A DNA stretch of 13,384 nt from Caldithrix sp. (GTDB lineage Bacteria; Calditrichota; Calditrichia; Calditrichales; Calditrichaceae), in NCBI GenBank assembly GCA_014730185.1, contig WJIP01000195.1, positions 1 through 13,384 of the forward strand, given 5' to 3'. Positions 1-13,384 of this stretch are shown in pieces. The stretch's first letter is position 1, and the number at the start of each line of letters is the position of its first letter. The position numbers and the translations under genes were made by a program. A model generated the notes under the pieces. The model worked only from the letters and a program-made list of their open reading frames with translations. It did not search any database and was not told the origin of the DNA.

Positions 1-220
1 AGCCCACTTCCCGGTAAGAGGCCTTTCCCTTTTGCCCTTTGGGCAATGAAATGGGAACTGTCAAATAACTCGGGCCGTTGGGCGTCTTGATGCGGTTACG
101 AGCGGCGAAGCTCTGTCCTCTCGGGTATTGGACGTTGTCCAGATAAACGAACACATCGCTTTGCATCATTTTGTAAAAATATCCGATCCACGGTAAATAG
201 TTTGCCTGATGCATAGCCAT
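1..220 (-). CDS. WbqC-like family protein, N-terminal part only; the gene runs off the window start
   Basis: The reverse complement of 1-220 reads MAMHQANYLPWIGYFYKMMQSDVFVYLDNVQYPRGQSFAARNRIKTPNGPSYLTVPISLPKGQ... The HQxNYLPWxGYF opening matches my recollection of the WbqC-like (PF08889) N-terminus. The ORF is open to the window edge and is absent from the ORF track because it is partial. The ATG at 218-220 lies 9 nt past the sulfotransferase stop. Confidence 0.55.
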   Translation of the reverse strand, partial: MAMHQANYLPWIGYFYKMMQSDVFVYLDNVQYPRGQSFAARNRIKTPNGPSYLTVPISLPKGQKGKASYREVG

Positions 221-228
221 TAAGGTTT

Positions 229-1227
229 TCATAAGGCGCCCTCGCTGTTTTCTAACGAACGGATCAGCGTTGAAAATTTTTCTTTATCTTCGCTTTGCGG
301 ATAACTGCGATAGGGAAATTCACCGGGCGGCGGATTATCAACTGTTAAGGAATAATCCAATAATTGCAGGGAAGTATCTTGAATTTGTTTGAAAACCTGA
401 TGCGGACTTCCCGTAAGCGATTGATAGGAAACCCTGACCACATTTAAATCATTATTCTTGATTTCCCTGTCGTAAAAGCGTTTCAAATAATAAACCTGTC
501 CAGCGATTTGTGTGTAATAATCCTTATCGCGCAACTGTTCGTATTCGATGGGCATATAGCTCCACCAGGTATTCAAGTCCGTGTAATATTTTTTGCGGGC
601 CTGTAAAATCGATACCGCAGCGTCCAGCGGATCCCGTTCGATGTATACATAAAGAACTTTACTCAGAATGTCCTGCATCGTTTTTAAGTGATAGGAACCA
701 AAGATATTTTTAAAGATCATTGGCTTACCGAACTCCTGTTGCATATTGGCTAATGTCTTTTTTAAGCCTGCCCAATTGATGTTGGGTTCCATTTCCTTAC
801 AGCGGGTGACCCCCTCAAACGTTTCTTTTTGTAACCAATACCGCCAGAAATAACCGAATTCATGAATGTCGGACAGCTCTGAGGTGCGGGCATAATCGGA
901 ATGGAAATCGGTTTGCCGTTGATCGCCGTAAATGCTTTTAAACAGGCGGATGCCGTGCAAAGGGGCCAGCCAGAAACGAGCCTCGAAATTATTAATGAAT
1001 CCCACGTCGAGTGAATGGGCAATGAGCTGGGTCATCAGCGTGGTGCCGGAGCGGGGTAAACCGAACACAAAAATAAAAGGATGTTCTATGCCGAGATCAT
1101 CGGTATACAACTCCTGTTCGGCGGCTTGCAGGGACCGGTTCAGATGTTGCAGAAAATTCTCGGTTTGCGGCGACTTAACGTAGCCGCCCTTGCGATTCTG
1201 ATATAAATCGGTTAATCGGTCAACCAT
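229..1227 (-). CDS. PAPS-dependent sulfotransferase family protein
   Basis: GLPRSGTTL matches the 5'-phosphosulfate-binding P-loop (PKSGTTW-like), and YIERDPLDAAVS matches the 3'-phosphate-binding RDPxD motif. The track start at 1230 is TTG. The ATG at 1225-1227 has AGGAG 6 nt upstream (plus-strand ctcct at 1233-1237). The stop is TGA. Confidence 0.8.
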   Translation of the reverse strand: MVDRLTDLYQNRKGGYVKSPQTENFLQHLNRSLQAAEQELYTDDLGIEHPFIFVFGLPRSGTTLMTQLIAHSLDVGFINNFEARFWLAPLHGIRLFKSIYGDQRQTDFHSDYARTSELSDIHEFGYFWRYWLQKETFEGVTRCKEMEPNINWAGLKKTLANMQQEFGKPMIFKNIFGSYHLKTMQDILSKVLYVYIERDPLDAAVSILQARKKYYTDLNTWWSYMPIEYEQLRDKDYYTQIAGQVYYLKRFYDREIKNNDLNVVRVSYQSLTGSPHQVFKQIQDTSLQLLDYSLTVDNPPPGEFPYRSYPQSEDKEKFSTLIRSLENSEGAL

Positions 1228-1240
1228 CAAACGCTCCTGT

Positions 1241-1876
1241 TTATTTGATTATCCAGCGTACAACTTCGAAGGTCTCGGCAAAATCTCTTCCGCATTGCAC
1301 ACCGCGGGTTTTGGCCAGTCCCTTAATAAACTCTTCATTGGCGTATTTGCGACCCGTTTGCGAACGATAGCATTTGACCGATTCCAGTTTGGTATGAAGA
1401 TGATGTTCTTCCAGATAGACGAAAGCCCGGGTTTCGAAGTTGATGTTATTCCAGGGCATTTCATAGGCCAGCACGGACGTAAATTTAAAGGCCCGTAAGC
1501 CTTCCGTGGCGATGGTAAAATGATCCTGATGCAAATCATTGGCGGATGTCATCAGCACGAGGTCGGGTTGGATATCCCGATTCAATTGCACCAGGTCCTC
1601 TAAAATTTCCTGTCGATAATGAGCAAATTTTCTGACCGGATAGCGATAGATAAGCAAATGATCCTTGCGGATGCCCAAAACTTTGCTGGAAGCTTTAACT
1701 TCCTTCAGCAAGATATCTTTGGGCAAACCCTCGGGAACCGATTCCTCGGCGCAGGAGAACGTGGCGTAGTATACGTCGCGGCCTTCCTCAATAAACTTTG
1801 CCATGGTCCCGCCGCATCCGAATTCGCCATCGTCGGTATGCGGCCCGAGAACCAGTACTTTTTTAAAATCATTCAT
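1241..1876 (-). CDS. PIG-L/LmbE family deacetylase (N-acetylglucosaminyl-type de-N-acetylase)
   Basis: The N-terminus VLVLGPHTDDGEFGCGGT is the signature HPDDE...GxGG zinc-binding motif of the PIG-L/LmbE fold. The ~210 aa length is typical. The stop lies 14 nt from the sulfotransferase ATG, so the two are in an operon. Confidence 0.85.
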   Translation of the reverse strand: MNDFKKVLVLGPHTDDGEFGCGGTMAKFIEEGRDVYYATFSCAEESVPEGLPKDILLKEVKASSKVLGIRKDHLLIYRYPVRKFAHYRQEILEDLVQLNRDIQPDLVLMTSANDLHQDHFTIATEGLRAFKFTSVLAYEMPWNNINFETRAFVYLEEHHLHTKLESVKCYRSQTGRKYANEEFIKGLAKTRGVQCGRDFAETFEVVRWIIK

Positions 1877-9026: not shown

Positions 9027-9497
9027 TTAAGACTCCTTTTCTTCTTTCTTTGTTTTCTTGGGAGCGGCTTTTGGCTTACTCTCCGCCTTGGCTTTCGTTT
9101 TAGTCTGCGTGTCTTTTTTTACCGTCGCAGACTTAGCGTTCGTACTCTCATCAGCGGCTTTGTCTTTTTTTGGCGCTGCTTTAACTTTACCAATGTTATC
9201 AATTTGAATCAGTGTATACGGCTGCCGGTGCCCTTTTTTAACACGATAGCCTTTACGCCGTTTTTTCTTAAAAACGGTAATTTTTTTATCTTTGCCGTTT
9301 TCTACCACCGTTGCAGAAACCTGCATGTTTTTAACAACAGGATTACCGATCTGAGGTTTGCCTTTGTCGTCTTCGAAAAAAAGTACTTTATCAAATTTAA
9401 CGGTTTTTTTATTCTGCGTATCCAGCAGGGGCACGCGAAGCTTCTGATTCTGCTCAACTTTATACTGTTTTCCACCGATCTCCACAATGGCGTACAT
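9027..9497 (-). CDS. rplU: 50S ribosomal protein L21 with a ~55-aa Lys/Ala/Thr-rich C-terminal extension
   Basis: MYAIVEIGGKQYKVEQNQKLRVP... is the canonical L21 start. The ATG at 9495-9497 has AGGAG 8 nt upstream. The track's extra 9 codons begin at a TTG. The tail KAAPKKDKAADESTNAKSATVKKDTQTKTKAKAESKPKAAPKKTKKEEKES is low-complexity and basic. Confidence 0.9.
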   Translation of the reverse strand: MYAIVEIGGKQYKVEQNQKLRVPLLDTQNKKTVKFDKVLFFEDDKGKPQIGNPVVKNMQVSATVVENGKDKKITVFKKKRRKGYRVKKGHRQPYTLIQIDNIGKVKAAPKKDKAADESTNAKSATVKKDTQTKTKAKAESKPKAAPKKTKKEEKES

Positions 9498-9538
9498 TAT
9501 TCTATCTCCTAAAATTGAATTCAAAAAAATAAGCCTTT

Positions 9539-9567: not shown

Positions 9568-9746
9568 ATTTTTGTCAGAGTTCCGAAGTTCCTAAGGGAC
9601 GTAGTGGAAAGCCTGTTAGCTTTGAGAAAAATAGATACATATTTGATAAATAAATCTCGGTTATTTAAATTATTGTTGAAAAGTTATCAATTGAGGTTAT
9701 GAGTGTAGCTTAGAAATCATTATAAGACACCAATCAGGGAGGCAAG

Positions 9747-10091
9747 ATGAATATTTACCATGAACCGGCGGCTGAAATGAGTGCGAAAGCCCGGGATTTG
9801 ACACGGGCCTTGGCCAGCTTAAAGGAAGAAATTGAAGCTGTTGATTGGTACAATCAACGTGTGGATTTAACCGAAGATGAAAAATTAAAAAAACTGTTGG
9901 CCCATAATCGGGACGAAGAGATCGAACACGCTTGTATGACCCTGGAATGGTTAAGGCGTAACATGGATGGATGGGATGAACAGCTGAGATTGTATTTATT
10001 TACCGAAGATGATATAACCGACCCTGAAGACCATGATCAGGATTCGAATGCAGGTAAGGATTCGGATAATCTGGGTATTGGTGAATTATAG
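9747..10091 (+). CDS. Encapsulated ferritin-like protein (EncFtn-type encapsulin cargo) with a C-terminal targeting peptide
   Basis: EAVDWYNQRVD...LLAHNRDEEIEHACMTLEWLRRN...LRLYLFTE matches my recollection of the EncFtn ferritin-like core (ExxH-containing helices). The acidic linker ends in ...SDNLGIGEL, which fits the family-1 cargo-loading peptide consensus (G)SLGIGSL. GGGAGG lies 5 nt upstream of the ATG. The gene sits immediately 5' of the shell gene. Confidence 0.75.
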   Translation: MNIYHEPAAEMSAKARDLTRALASLKEEIEAVDWYNQRVDLTEDEKLKKLLAHNRDEEIEHACMTLEWLRRNMDGWDEQLRLYLFTEDDITDPEDHDQDSNAGKDSDNLGIGEL

Positions 10092-10106
10092 AATGAAGGA
10101 GTCAAA

Positions 10107-10904
10107 ATGATGGATATTTTAAAAAAAGGTTTAGCACCGATTACCGATCAGGCATGGCAGGTTATCGAAGAAGAAAGTCGCGAAATGTTAACAATGCATC
10201 TGACCGCCCGCCGGTTTGTAGATTTGGATGGCCCCAATGGCATCGCCTTCAGTGCGGTCTCTCTGGGGCAATTGGCTTTACCAAAAAATCAAAAAAAAGA
10301 CGAAGTGCAATATGGAATACACACTGTTTTACCCTTAATGGAAGTGCGCATGCCGTTTGATCTGAATATTTGGGAGCTGGATAATCTGCATCGGGGCAAA
10401 GAAAATATCGATTTAACAAATATGGAAAAGGCTGCTAAAAAAATTGCCCAGTTTGAAGAGCAGGCCATTTATTATGGTTTTGAAGGTGGCTCCATTCAAG
10501 GTTTGTATGAAAAAAGTGAGCATAAAAGCCGTCCGATGCCTAAAAATGCCGAACAAACCCTGAAAAGCCTTCCCGAGGGTATTCAAACGCTAAAGGATAA
10601 TGCCGTAGACGGTCCCTACCATTTGATAGTGAACCCCAATAAATGGCAGGAGATCAGCAGTTATGTCAAAGGGTATCCGCTAAAAAAGCAGGTTGAAAAT
10701 ATGCTTGAGGGTCGGGTGGTTACGTGTCCAAATATCAGCGGTATGTTTCTGGTACCCCTAAGAGGTGGTCATTTTAAACTGACGATTGGCATGGATTTGT
10801 CCATAGGCTATGAGTCGCACAATGCTAAGGAAGTGAAGTTGTATTTTACCGAATCTTTTACATTTCAGGTGCTCGATCCGGCTGCCTATATTATATTTGA
10901 ATAA
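10107..10904 (+). CDS. Family-1 encapsulin nanocompartment shell protein (HK97 fold, Linocin_M18-like)
   Basis: The 265 aa length is typical. The LKKGLAPITDQAWQVIEEESRE N-terminus and blocks such as WELDNLHRGKENIDL, GPYHLIVNPNKW, GGHFKLTIGMDLSIGYES and FTESFTFQV match blocks I recall from characterised T4-type encapsulins. AAGGAG lies 5 nt upstream of the ATG, which is 15 nt after the cargo stop. Confidence 0.9.
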   Translation: MMDILKKGLAPITDQAWQVIEEESREMLTMHLTARRFVDLDGPNGIAFSAVSLGQLALPKNQKKDEVQYGIHTVLPLMEVRMPFDLNIWELDNLHRGKENIDLTNMEKAAKKIAQFEEQAIYYGFEGGSIQGLYEKSEHKSRPMPKNAEQTLKSLPEGIQTLKDNAVDGPYHLIVNPNKWQEISSYVKGYPLKKQVENMLEGRVVTCPNISGMFLVPLRGGHFKLTIGMDLSIGYESHNAKEVKLYFTESFTFQVLDPAAYIIFE

Positions 10905-10936
10905 ATACTATCATAATATTTATTTAGTGCCGGGGT

Positions 10937-10976
10937 GTATACAATAGCCACGCATGAACAGTGTTGTATACTTTTT
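10937..10976 (+). terminator. Candidate terminator of the encapsulin operon
   Basis: An 8-bp stem gtatacaa/ttgtatac closes a 19-nt loop and is followed by TTTTT (10972-10976), about 35 nt after the encapsulin stop. Confidence 0.4.
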
Positions 10977-11172
10977 GCTAATCTGGTTAAGAATGCGTAA
11001 TTTGTTTGGTTCAGCCATTGAAACCAATGGGTATGGTTGATTTCTTTAGAGAGAGGAGTCAAAAATGGCGAAAAAAGAAGTCGGTTGCGCTCGACCGACA
11101 GGAGCACGCGTTGGTGAATCGTCTGCCGATGAAATAACCGTTAATGAACAGAAAGAAAAAGAGGAGAAAGTT

Positions 11173-11781
11173 ATGAGCACGGCAAAAGTAGGGGCAAAAG
11201 CCCCGGATTTTCAGGCGCCGGCTTATTTTAAAGGGGAATTCACGGAGGTGCAACTTTCCGATTTCCTGGGTAAGTGGGTGCTGTTATGTTTTTATCCCGG
11301 TGACTTCACATTCGTTTGAGCGACTGAAGTGTCAGCGGTCGCTGCCAACTATGATACATTACAGGAACTTGGAGTACATGTTATCTCCGTGAGCGTCGAT
11401 AGTCAGTTTGTCCATAAAGTTTGGAATGATCAAGAGCTATCCAAGATGATCGATGGAGATATTCCCTTTCATATGGCCTCGGATGGTTCCGGAGAGGTAG
11501 GCAAGATTTATGGAGTATACGATGAAATGGCTGGTGTTGAGTTGCGTGGCCGTTTTATCATCGATCCGGATGGCGTTGTTCAGGCCATGGAAGTGATGAC
11601 CCCTCCTGTAGGGCGCCAGCTCGCCGAGACGATCCGGCAGGTTAAAGCCTTTCAGCATGTGCGGGCCACATCCGGTGCGGAAGCTTGCCCGGCAGGATGG
11701 GAACCCGGAAAACCCACACTCAAACCTGGGCCTGCTCTGGTGGGCAATGTATGGAAAGAGTGGAAACCCACAAAATTGTAA
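11173..11781 (+). CDS. Selenocysteine-containing 2-Cys peroxiredoxin (AhpC/TSA family); the in-frame TGA at 11317-11319 is read as Sec
   Basis: Track ORFs 11065..11319 and 11329..11781 lie in one frame separated only by TGA. The joined product reads ...[28 protein letters not shown]...[12 protein letters not shown]...[11 protein letters not shown]...[18 protein letters not shown]. This is the canonical FTFVCPTE peroxidatic-Cys motif with TGA at the Cys, plus the EVCPAGW resolving-Cys motif. At 202 aa the length is standard for a Prx. GAGGAG lies 6 nt upstream of the ATG at 11173. An alternative in-frame ATG at 11065 also has AGGAG. Confidence 0.75.
11319..11343 (+). promoter_or_regulatory. 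Candidate bacterial SECIS hairpin immediately 3' of the UGA
   Basis: A 6-bp stem agcgac(11319-11324)/gtcgct(11338-11343) encloses a 3-bp upper stem tga/tca with apical loop AGUG 9-12 nt after the UGA. The position and GU-containing apical loop fit a bSECIS. An alternative fold, CG/CUGA-AGUG-UCAG/CG with a bulged A, gives the same apex. Confidence 0.5.
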
Positions 11782-11845
11782 ACGGAGCGTTTAAAAGCCA
11801 TACCCATTGGTTTGCTTTGGTGCTAGGATTTTGGTAAGTAAATTT

Positions 11846-11875
11846 ATCAATTCACAGATGCAAAAGTGAATTGAT
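11846..11875 (+). terminator. Candidate terminator of the peroxiredoxin gene
   Basis: A perfect 10-bp stem atcaattcac/gtgaattgat with a 10-nt loop sits 65 nt after the stop and is followed by TATTGTGTT, a weak U-tract. Confidence 0.4.
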
Positions 11876-12344: not shown

Positions 12345-13384
12345 ATGAGGCATTTTTACTCTTATAGGTTGCTGACTTTATTAATATTGTTGGCGCCTGG
12401 AATAATTTTCAGCCAATTATCGGGTACCTATACCATAGGAGCGGGCGGGGACTACACGACCTTCTCAGATGCAGCGGATGATCTTAATACCGATGGGGTA
12501 ACCGGAACGGTAACGTTCGATGTTATCAGCGGTTCTTACAATGAGCAGTTTGCAATCGGTGGGATAAGCGGGGTGAGCGCATCCAATACCGTTACCTTTC
12601 AAGCTCAATCCGGAGACGCAGCTGATGTAACGATTTCATATACGGCCAGCGGTTCATCCGATAATTATATTGTACAATTGGATAACACTGATCATATCAT
12701 GTTCAAAAATTTATCATTTAATACCACGGGCTCAAGTTACGCCAGAGTATTCGACCTGCGAAATAATGTAGATCATTTAACGATTGATCAATGCGAATTA
12801 TCCGGAAGTCCAACAACTTCGAGCAGTACCAATTATGCTCTTATTTATGGAGATGATCTTAACGGTACAGATTTTCTGATTACCGATAACACTTTCATTG
12901 ATGGTTCATCAGCGGTGTATCTAAGGGGTGTCAGTTCTGCAAGCAGAGCAAGCAACTCAGTCATTGAAAACAATGATATTTCCGGCGACCTCTATTATGG
13001 CATTTATTTAAGCTATTTCAATAACCATGAAATCACGCAAAATTTGTTGGAAGTTCGCAACTATGGATTCTATCTGCAGGATACCGATGGACGTGTGAGG
13101 GTGGAAAATAATCGTTTACAGACCCGTTTAAGTTACGGTATTTATATAGTAAGTAGCGAGGGCAATGCGGATCGTCTGAGAATTGCCAATAACTTTTTAA
13201 GCAATACTTATACAGGTACGAATTATGGTTTATACACCAACAACAATTCCAATTTGGACATCTACCACAACAGCGTTCATCTGACGCGATCGTCAAGTGG
13301 CTATGCCCTATACCAGACGGGCAGCGGCAATGACATCAACATCGTCAATAACATTTTTGCCAATTTCGGCGGCGGCTATGCTAC
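12345..13384 (+). CDS. Secreted right-handed parallel beta-helix (pectate-lyase-fold) repeat protein, 5' part; continues past the window end
   Basis: My own translation from the ATG at 12345 reads MRHFYSYRLLTLLILLAPGIIFSQLSGTYTIGAGGDYTTFSDAADDL...VIENNDISGDLYYGIYLSY...RVENNRLQTRLSYGIYIV...IANNFLSNTYTGTNYGLYTNNNSNLDIYHNSVHL... This shows a signal peptide and repeated NNx(I/L)...YG(I/L)Y PbH1-like coils. The ORF is open to base 13384. GGGGG lies 8 nt upstream of the ATG. It is absent from the track because it has no stop. Confidence 0.7.
   Translation, partial: MRHFYSYRLLTLLILLAPGIIFSQLSGTYTIGAGGDYTTFSDAADDLNTDGVTGTVTFDVISGSYNEQFAIGGISGVSASNTVTFQAQSGDAADVTISYTASGSSDNYIVQLDNTDHIMFKNLSFNTTGSSYARVFDLRNNVDHLTIDQCELSGSPTTSSSTNYALIYGDDLNGTDFLITDNTFIDGSSAVYLRGVSSASRASNSVIENNDISGDLYYGIYLSYFNNHEITQNLLEVRNYGFYLQDTDGRVRVENNRLQTRLSYGIYIVSSEGNADRLRIANNFLSNTYTGTNYGLYTNNNSNLDIYHNSVHLTRSSSGYALYQTGSGNDINIVNNIFANFGGGYA

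Follow-up and report, generated by a model that had tools for sequence, protein, structure and literature searches.

Two well-known units as probable neighbours in a Calditrichota contig: an encapsulin iron-storage operon and a selenocysteine peroxiredoxin gene

Do an encapsulin iron-storage operon and the selenocysteine (Sec) peroxiredoxin gene that follows it form one stress-defence system, or do they stand side by side as separate units? The question is raised by a whole contig of 13,384 nt (WJIP01000195.1) from a Caldithrix sp. metagenome-assembled genome (Calditrichota), referred to here as the window, in which positions 9747-10091 encode an encapsulated ferritin (EncFtn) cargo protein, 10107-10904 a family 1 encapsulin shell, and 11065-11781 the peroxiredoxin (Prx) PrxU; these and all other window features given below lie on the plus strand unless noted. 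A first-pass annotation had proposed that the three genes make up a co-regulated module for iron detoxification and peroxide removal, and all of the features it had placed were recovered at their positions. If the linkage were functional, the joining of nanocompartment iron sequestration with selenium-dependent peroxide removal would be a new combination in the oxidative-stress defence of anaerobes. The reading we prefer, with a probability of roughly three in four, is that the locus consists of two independent, well-known units side by side, an encapsulin iron-storage operon and a stand-alone prxU, so that the pairing is most likely a matter of neighbourhood, not a new system.

The adjacency of the two units was examined from both sides. 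For the encapsulin, 80 genome loci were compared, with shells 49-59% identical to that of the window, from candidate division KSB1, Bacteroidales, Ignavibacteria, Verrucomicrobia and Desulfobacterota; 73 of these were informative, with 900 bp or more of sequence beyond the shell gene. EncFtn is encoded directly upstream of the encapsulin in 79 of the 80, the exception being a contig edge, and an adjacent co-directional Prx gene occurs in none of the 73 informative loci (0 of 80 overall). For the Sec-Prx, neither encapsulin nor EncFtn was found in any of the loci of the best 80 metagenomic relatives, and no conserved neighbour emerged among the 54 with at least 1.2 kb of upstream sequence. Closer relatives of the Prx, at 81-88% identity, were found with the post-Sec fragment as query, and their seven further genomic contexts likewise contain no encapsulin; the genes upstream of prxU there are those for a cation ATPase, a 3-keto-disaccharide hydrolase/4HBT, radical SAM, Band_7 or an ABC transporter. 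The other window genes showed no synteny with any of the 176 fetched loci. Among the loci examined, Sec-Prx adjacency is found in this single contig only. The neighbourhood analysis that the first-pass annotation had called for, asking whether Prx or Sec-Prx co-occurs with this encapsulin clade, thus returned 0 of 73 informative encapsulin loci and 0 of 80 Sec-Prx loci; the adjacency is unconserved in either direction, an outcome named beforehand as refuting the co-regulated module. We infer that the adjacency arose through lineage-specific gene placement and that prxU is transcribed separately from the encapsulin operon.

Neighbours vary widely around both units. Those that recur at encapsulin loci differ by lineage, the commonest being an MscS channel (20 loci) and a nitroreductase (13), followed by a Dps-like ferritin (seven) and a Fur-family regulator (six). 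In some Bacteroidales, the Dps-like ferritin or Fur-family regulator is encoded upstream of the EncFtn-encapsulin pair, as at 1-480 (minus strand) of comparison locus L005 and 903-1349 (minus strand) of L004. Five Marinilabiliaceae-type loci (L013, L022, L023, L031 and L036) carry a cysteine (Cys) Prx gene 1.2-2.5 kb downstream of the encapsulin on the opposite strand, the product being of the AhpC/1-Cys-C-terminal-domain type and 31% identical to the window Prx. This placement looks like one evolutionary event, and a non-operonic one.

The first unit is of a familiar kind. In profile searches, the 114-residue product of the cargo gene matches PF22277 (EncFtn-like) with an E-value of 3e-40 and scores 150.8 bits against TIGR04535, for which the cut-off is 125; its best solved relative is Rhodospirillum rubrum EncFtn (5da5, E 3e-28). 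Residue-by-residue alignment to 5da5 places E28, E58, H61 and W34 of the window protein on R. rubrum E32, E62, H65 and W38, the first three of which we take to be the ferroxidase centre and the last the entry site. The protein ends in a targeting (cargo-loading) peptide of LGIG type, DNLGIGEL (10065-10088), and a C-terminal peptide of this type is present in all 72 EncFtn homologues that adjoin related encapsulins, in the strict form L[GTS][IV][GRK] in 59 and as close variants in 13. A consensus scan predicts a sigma-70-like promoter candidate 5' of the gene, TTGATA-17-TAAATT at 9643-9671, with 9 of 12 matches.

The shell protein belongs by sequence to the HK97-fold Linocin_M18/encap_f1 family: it aligns over 252 of the 253 positions of profile PF04454 (E 2.5e-78) and reaches 266 bits against NF041155 (family 1 encapsulin), where the cut-off is 100; the Thermotoga maritima encapsulin, 3dkt, is the closest solved shell (E 3e-62). 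A deposited protein of 264 residues, labelled 'bacteriocin [Caldithrix sp.]', is 100% identical to the window encapsulin and starts at the second ATG, and the 265-residue form has no exact-protein match. Because the deposited annotation and the homologues begin there, the true start is probably ATG 10110 (MDIL...), one codon after the start of the open reading frame, for a protein of 264 residues. All other database shells are at most 59% identical to it. With the profile matches, the DNLGIGEL end and a spacing of 16-19 nt between the genes, the description of a cargo gene with a loading peptide and a family 1 shell gene in a compact operon holds. In the predicted mechanism, an EncFtn decamer would oxidise Fe(II) at an inter-subunit ferroxidase centre, the C-terminal peptide would dock EncFtn within the encapsulin shell, whose gene follows after 16-19 nt, and this shell would hold the iron mineral.

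The second unit is equally recognizable. The gene at 11065-11781 (ATG to TAA) encodes a protein of 238 residues that, with U entered as C for the profile comparison, scores 407 bits against NF040737 (peroxi_PrxU), beyond the cut-off of 270, and that also matches PF00578 and PF10417. The NF040737 alignment spans residues 6-236 of 238, and ATG 11065 is therefore the real prxU start. Because EncFtn, the encapsulin and the Prx all exceed curated NCBIfam cut-offs, each is, by profile score, a further member of a known family. An in-frame UGA (11317-11319) occupies the peroxidatic position of the motif PxxxTxxU, read here as P-G-D-F-T-F-V-TGA (part of a 13-letter protein segment not shown). The best 80 metagenomic relatives all have TGA here, with the downstream frame fully conserved, and database homologues show W or C at the Sec position. 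Just downstream, 13-30 nt past the U of the UGA, a selenocysteine insertion sequence (SECIS) hairpin at 11330-11347 has a stem of seven pairs, one of which is a U-C mismatch in the window, and the loop GGUC at 11337-11340. Across the alignment 92.7% of its cells are paired, both sides are changed in 65 cells where 16 are expected, and covariation (0.358 versus 0.112) is matched by none of 500 shuffles, the changes falling at synonymous sites. The minimum-energy hairpin at 11318-11345 was rejected as the SECIS, since it lacks covariation and is paired in 72.5% of cells versus 72.3% when shuffled.

The Sec-Prx selenoproteins, which have a TxxU motif, are an established family (PMC13188914), and experimental verification has come from Eubacterium acidaminophilum (Sohling et al. 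2001, cited in PMC13188914). Judged from its sequence, the window Prx is a genuine PrxU selenoprotein, and with the NF040737 match, the in-frame TGA and the covarying SECIS the first-pass assignment of a selenocysteine Prx gene 160 nt 3' of the shell gene stands. Its predicted activity is that of a thioredoxin-dependent peroxiredoxin with selenocysteine as the peroxidatic residue, and decoding of the UGA would be helped by the SECIS hairpin 13-30 nt downstream. Public Sec-Prx genes are systematically mis-called, either with the TGA read as W ('FVWATE' in P0121-P0125, P0127, P0128 and others) or as fragments of 82 and 151 residues (P0241-P0357), a reminder that gene callers routinely split PrxU genes or mistranslate their TGA as W.

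Most close PrxU homologues are 235-243 residues long and have in common an N-terminal extension, about 35 residues in the window protein. The extension, at 11065-11172 (its first 13 protein letters are not shown), contains one conserved Cys, in the motif G-C-x-R-P, and the same is seen in homologues P0121-P0225. The C-terminal resolving Cys is kept in the window PrxU (EACPAGW; canonical CPAGW), and T or A replaces it in most relatives. With the C-terminal Cys lost from most of them, it may be the N-terminal one that usually resolves the selenenic acid. A local hairpin at 11080-11099, GTCGGT-TGCGCTCG-ACCGAC (codons V-G-C-A-R-P-T), inside the first 35 nt of coding sequence, was picked up by the terminator scan on the minus strand; it could modulate initiation.

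What the prxU gene carries around it bears directly on whether it stands alone. The gene is bracketed by an inverted repeat, with a 5' arm, AAACCAATGGGTATGG (11021-11036), that starts 44 nt before the ATG and a 3' arm, CCATACCCATTGGTTT (11798-11813), that begins 16 nt past the stop codon, with a U-rich tract behind it. The arms are complementary at 16 of 16 positions, and all other perfectly complementary inverted repeats in the window are shorter. A bracket of differing sequence occurs in seven other loci: L081 (5217-5235 and 5986-6004), L082 (229-245 and 1001-1017), L164/L165 (4702-4717 and 5466-5481 in L164), L167 (3818-3833 and 4582-4597), L168 (4700-4719 and 5466-5485), L172/L173, and L174-L176 (4705-4724 and 5465-5484 in L174). 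In these seven, 740-755 nt separate the arms; the 5' arm starts 36-48 nt ahead of the ATG, and the 3' arm lies 5-11 nt beyond the stop. The bracket is restricted to a prxU subclade at least 81% identical to the window Prx; it is missing in L083, L161, L162 and L169, so it is no general PrxU feature.

Alignment of the arms from the eight loci gives 17 pairs with 93.4% of cells paired, a percentage inflated by the choice of arm segments for their complementarity, and compensatory changes, which that choice does not inflate, in 14 of the 17, where both sides have changed. Arm covariation is 0.655 versus 0.240, a value reached by none of 500 shuffles, and controls with the arms slid give at most 0.14. 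The predicted duplex energy is -23 to -39 kcal/mol in bracketed loci and -9 to -11 kcal/mol in L083, L161 and L169; z-scores from RNAduplex with long flanks were set aside as the main statistic, being dominated by spurious extensions. Mismatches inside the arms comprise four or five U-G or G-U on the sense strand versus one A-C, and a U-rich tract comes after most of the 3' arms. Because of these sense-strand U-G and G-U mismatches and the U-rich tract after the 3' arm, the bracket is probably an RNA-level helix between the untranslated regions (UTRs) at the 5' and 3' ends, followed by a U-tract. A further recurrent complementarity, between (A)RPTG codons and PPVGR codons 482-496 nt apart, was noted at 4769-4780/5277-5288 in L169, 4768-4780/5277-5289 in L172 and 3885-3903/4386-4404 in L167. 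It was set aside as probably chance, since 8 of 12 positions are forced by the antisense codon relationship and the window matches at only 9 of 11.

The prxU relatives that lack an encapsulin keep both the AGGAGT ribosome-binding site and the flanking helix. The gene comes with a ribosome-binding site and a leader of its own and with a covarying 5'/3' flanking helix, and that prxU brings its own conserved flanking signals wherever it is placed fits a stand-alone gene behind the encapsulin operon. We tentatively suggest, at somewhat below even odds, that prxU mRNA of the subclade is closed as a "panhandle" by the covarying 16-20-bp helix, serving as a long-range terminator or end-protection element and perhaps coupling mRNA survival to read-through of the Sec UGA. 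Were this so, prxU would be a self-contained expression cassette for any genomic context, that behind an encapsulin operon included, and transcripts reading through from a weak encapsulin terminator could still be cut back to a stable, monocistronic mRNA of prxU. Beyond the 3' arm, a hairpin at 11846-11875 with a 10-bp stem and a 10-nt loop, followed by UAUUGUGUU (-10.2 kcal/mol, z -2.3), is a terminator candidate after prxU.

A number of observations weigh against two independent units and for the unlikely alternative that EncFtn, encapsulin and Sec-Prx are one co-transcribed or co-regulated module for iron detoxification and peroxide removal, tied by read-through or a common regulator. The encapsulin and prxU genes are co-directional and separated by only 160 nt (10905-11064). 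The hairpin between them is weak: the AU-rich structure at 10937-10976, predicted by folding with a 10-bp stem and a 15-nt loop and followed by UUUUU, has an energy of -10.9 kcal/mol, which does not improve on shuffled sequence (z +0.4), and it went uncalled in the terminator scan. A consensus scan found no convincing sigma-70 promoter in the gap. Because the hairpin is weak and no convincing promoter was seen there, co-transcription by read-through from the encapsulin into prxU is possible. The same Shine-Dalgarno context, the exact 11-mer AGGAGTCAAAA, precedes the encapsulin start (10097-10107) and the prxU start (11054-11064), and these are its only two copies in the window; 0.01 would be expected by chance, a figure that holds for a pre-specified motif, and this one was picked after looking. 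A similarity of about 38 nt links 10072-10109 (the EncFtn 3' end and the encapsulin ribosome-binding site) with 11028-11066 (the prxU leader), its score of 18 being reached by 2 of 5000 shuffles, and other places in the window score 16. In a minority of the relatives, genes for Prx, Dps and Fur recur close to the EncFtn-encapsulin pair; the Prx of the Marinilabiliaceae-type loci, with Dps and Fur elsewhere, hints at a loose, recurrent association of stress genes with encapsulin. The comparison loci, moreover, include no other Calditrichota encapsulin locus, and the closest shell relative is only 59% identical. Against the module stands, above all, the absence of the adjacency from every comparable locus in both directions. 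The shared ribosome-binding context, to which the first-pass annotation had drawn attention, is real as an exact 11-mer and weak as evidence of a link: encapsulin relatives use GGAGGT, with GGAGT missing in 78 of 79, whereas Prx relatives carry AGGAGT[CA]A at the same place without any encapsulin (AGGAGTAAAAG in L081, AGGAGTCATTT in L084), and the GGAGT core recurs in the ribosome-binding site of the window's L27 gene (AAGGAGTC). Because the Prx relatives and the L27 gene use it too, the 11-mer mostly reflects a lineage-typical Shine-Dalgarno flavour. The 38-nt similarity was set aside, its score being only marginally above those of the other in-window places and its left half coinciding with the prxU 5' arm, inherited from encapsulin-free relatives, and is treated as chance plus the shared Shine-Dalgarno flavour. 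From relatives without encapsulin, prxU has likewise inherited its leader, its ribosome-binding site and its flanking helix, and the regions upstream of EncFtn and of prxU share no operator-like repeat, none of 10 nt or more being common to both. The hairpin and U5 between the units are also built as those after prxU, and it is plausible that the former is a terminator, if a weak one.

Other ways of linking or dissolving the pair fare worse. An account at the level of DNA, in which the inverted repeats mark an invertible segment or a mobilisable cassette and so explain the arrival of prxU behind the encapsulin, seems to us more doubtful than the module. The arms are perfect or near-perfect over 16-20 nt in several diverged loci, as homogenisation by recombination can yield, and the gene context of prxU differs in almost every locus; the mismatches, however, are mostly of the U-G and G-U kind in the sense strand, the arms keep fixed distances from the start (36-48 nt) and the stop (5-16 nt) with a U-rich tract after the 3' arm, inspection by eye of the flanks in the window and L081 showed no target-site duplication, and none of the genes called or annotated around prxU was noted as a recombinase. 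Far less probable is a role for PrxU as a second encapsulin cargo, loaded through its N-terminal extension. N-terminal targeting peptides do exist for a secondary ferredoxin cargo in Firmicutes encapsulin systems (PMC8346489), and the extension of about 35 residues is probably flexible, but it is family-wide, lies inside the NCBIfam PrxU model and occurs in some 90 relatives that have no encapsulin close by, and its single conserved Cys (G-C-x-R-P) suggests redox chemistry instead of docking. Neither the extension nor the C-terminus (12 protein letters not shown) has an LGIG-like motif, in agreement with the first-pass view of the Prx as a neighbour and not a cargo. Equally improbable is that the TGA is a true stop or a sequencing error and the Prx a broken gene, or two fragments, and no selenoprotein. 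Gene callers do split such genes at the TGA, into fragments of 82 and 151 residues, and the 13-kb contig is without Sec machinery: whole-window tRNA and Rfam scans gave no match, hence no tRNA-Sec and no known regulatory RNA on the contig. Yet in 80 of 80 relatives the TGA falls exactly at the catalytic codon and the frame is fully conserved beyond it, the SECIS covaries at synonymous sites, the protein is above the curated PrxU cut-off (NF040737), and a Sec-Prx has been verified experimentally in E. acidaminophilum (Sohling et al. 2001, cited in PMC13188914).

Under the reading of two separate units side by side, a shared stress response of both, through iron and oxidative-stress physiology, is plausible, and the data require no physical or operonic link. 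The literature searched yielded no paper tying an encapsulin to a peroxiredoxin (both are mentioned in seven papers, and none of these connects them), which bears out the first-pass remark that the pairing is unreported; the evidence indicates that encapsulin and Sec-Prx are not a conserved combination. Beyond this, the locus offers two well-known systems in a first example of Calditrichota type. The covarying 5'/3' helix is the sole item that may merit follow-up, and it could be a tractable natural case of long-range UTR pairing on a selenoprotein mRNA.

Elsewhere in the window, the open reading frame for ribosomal protein L21 at 9027-9524 (minus strand) encodes 165 residues with a long C-terminal tail rich in Lys, Ala and Glu, and its listed TTG start probably lies upstream of the real start (MYAIVEIGGKQYKV). 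On the 3' side of prxU, about 560 nt without a long open reading frame lead to a gene for a right-handed beta-helix protein (PF13229, NosD-like) with a signal peptide, at 12345-13384, which runs off the contig end.

Compared with family 1 encapsulins that have EncFtn or Flp cargo, such as those of T. maritima, R. rubrum and Haliangium ochraceum, the first unit has the same two-gene operon, cargo then shell, with a spacing of 16-19 nt. Its E, E and H align with E32, E62 and H65 of R. rubrum EncFtn, and the LGIG-type peptide is shared with family 1 systems as well. The architecture is unchanged; the window differs only in the host phylum, a Calditrichota-type metagenome-assembled genome, and in a moderate divergence of the shell. 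Flp and EncFtn family 1 encapsulin systems have been described from 23 bacterial phyla, iron homeostasis and resistance to oxidative stress being their presumed roles (PMC8346489). Flp-fusion encapsulins found beside ferritin-like proteins or rubrerythrins (PMC8346489) share with the window the theme of iron and oxidative-stress genes near an encapsulin. Among the loci compared here, stress genes beside encapsulins (Dps in seven, Fur in six, Cys-Prx in five) recur within lineages, whereas the Sec-Prx adjacency is confined to one contig.

The PrxU of E. acidaminophilum (NF040737; Sohling et al. 2001) has the same PxxxTxxU motif with UGA and a SECIS right after it, and the match to the full-length model includes the N-terminal extension. 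Within the PrxU family, the window protein stands apart from most relatives, which have T or A there, in retaining the C-terminal resolving Cys (EACPAGW), and the 5'/3' flanking helix of its gene is limited to the subclade of at least 81% identity. Interactions between the 5' and 3' UTRs of bacterial mRNAs have been described for hbs of Bacillus subtilis (PMC5737220) and icaR of Staphylococcus aureus (PMC3868564). The predicted prxU helix is likewise a long-range pairing on a single gene, joining the leader to the region just past the stop. It differs from that of icaR in that the prxU ribosome-binding site is not occluded, and from both in its arms, which are 16-20 nt long, nearly perfect and followed by a U-tract.

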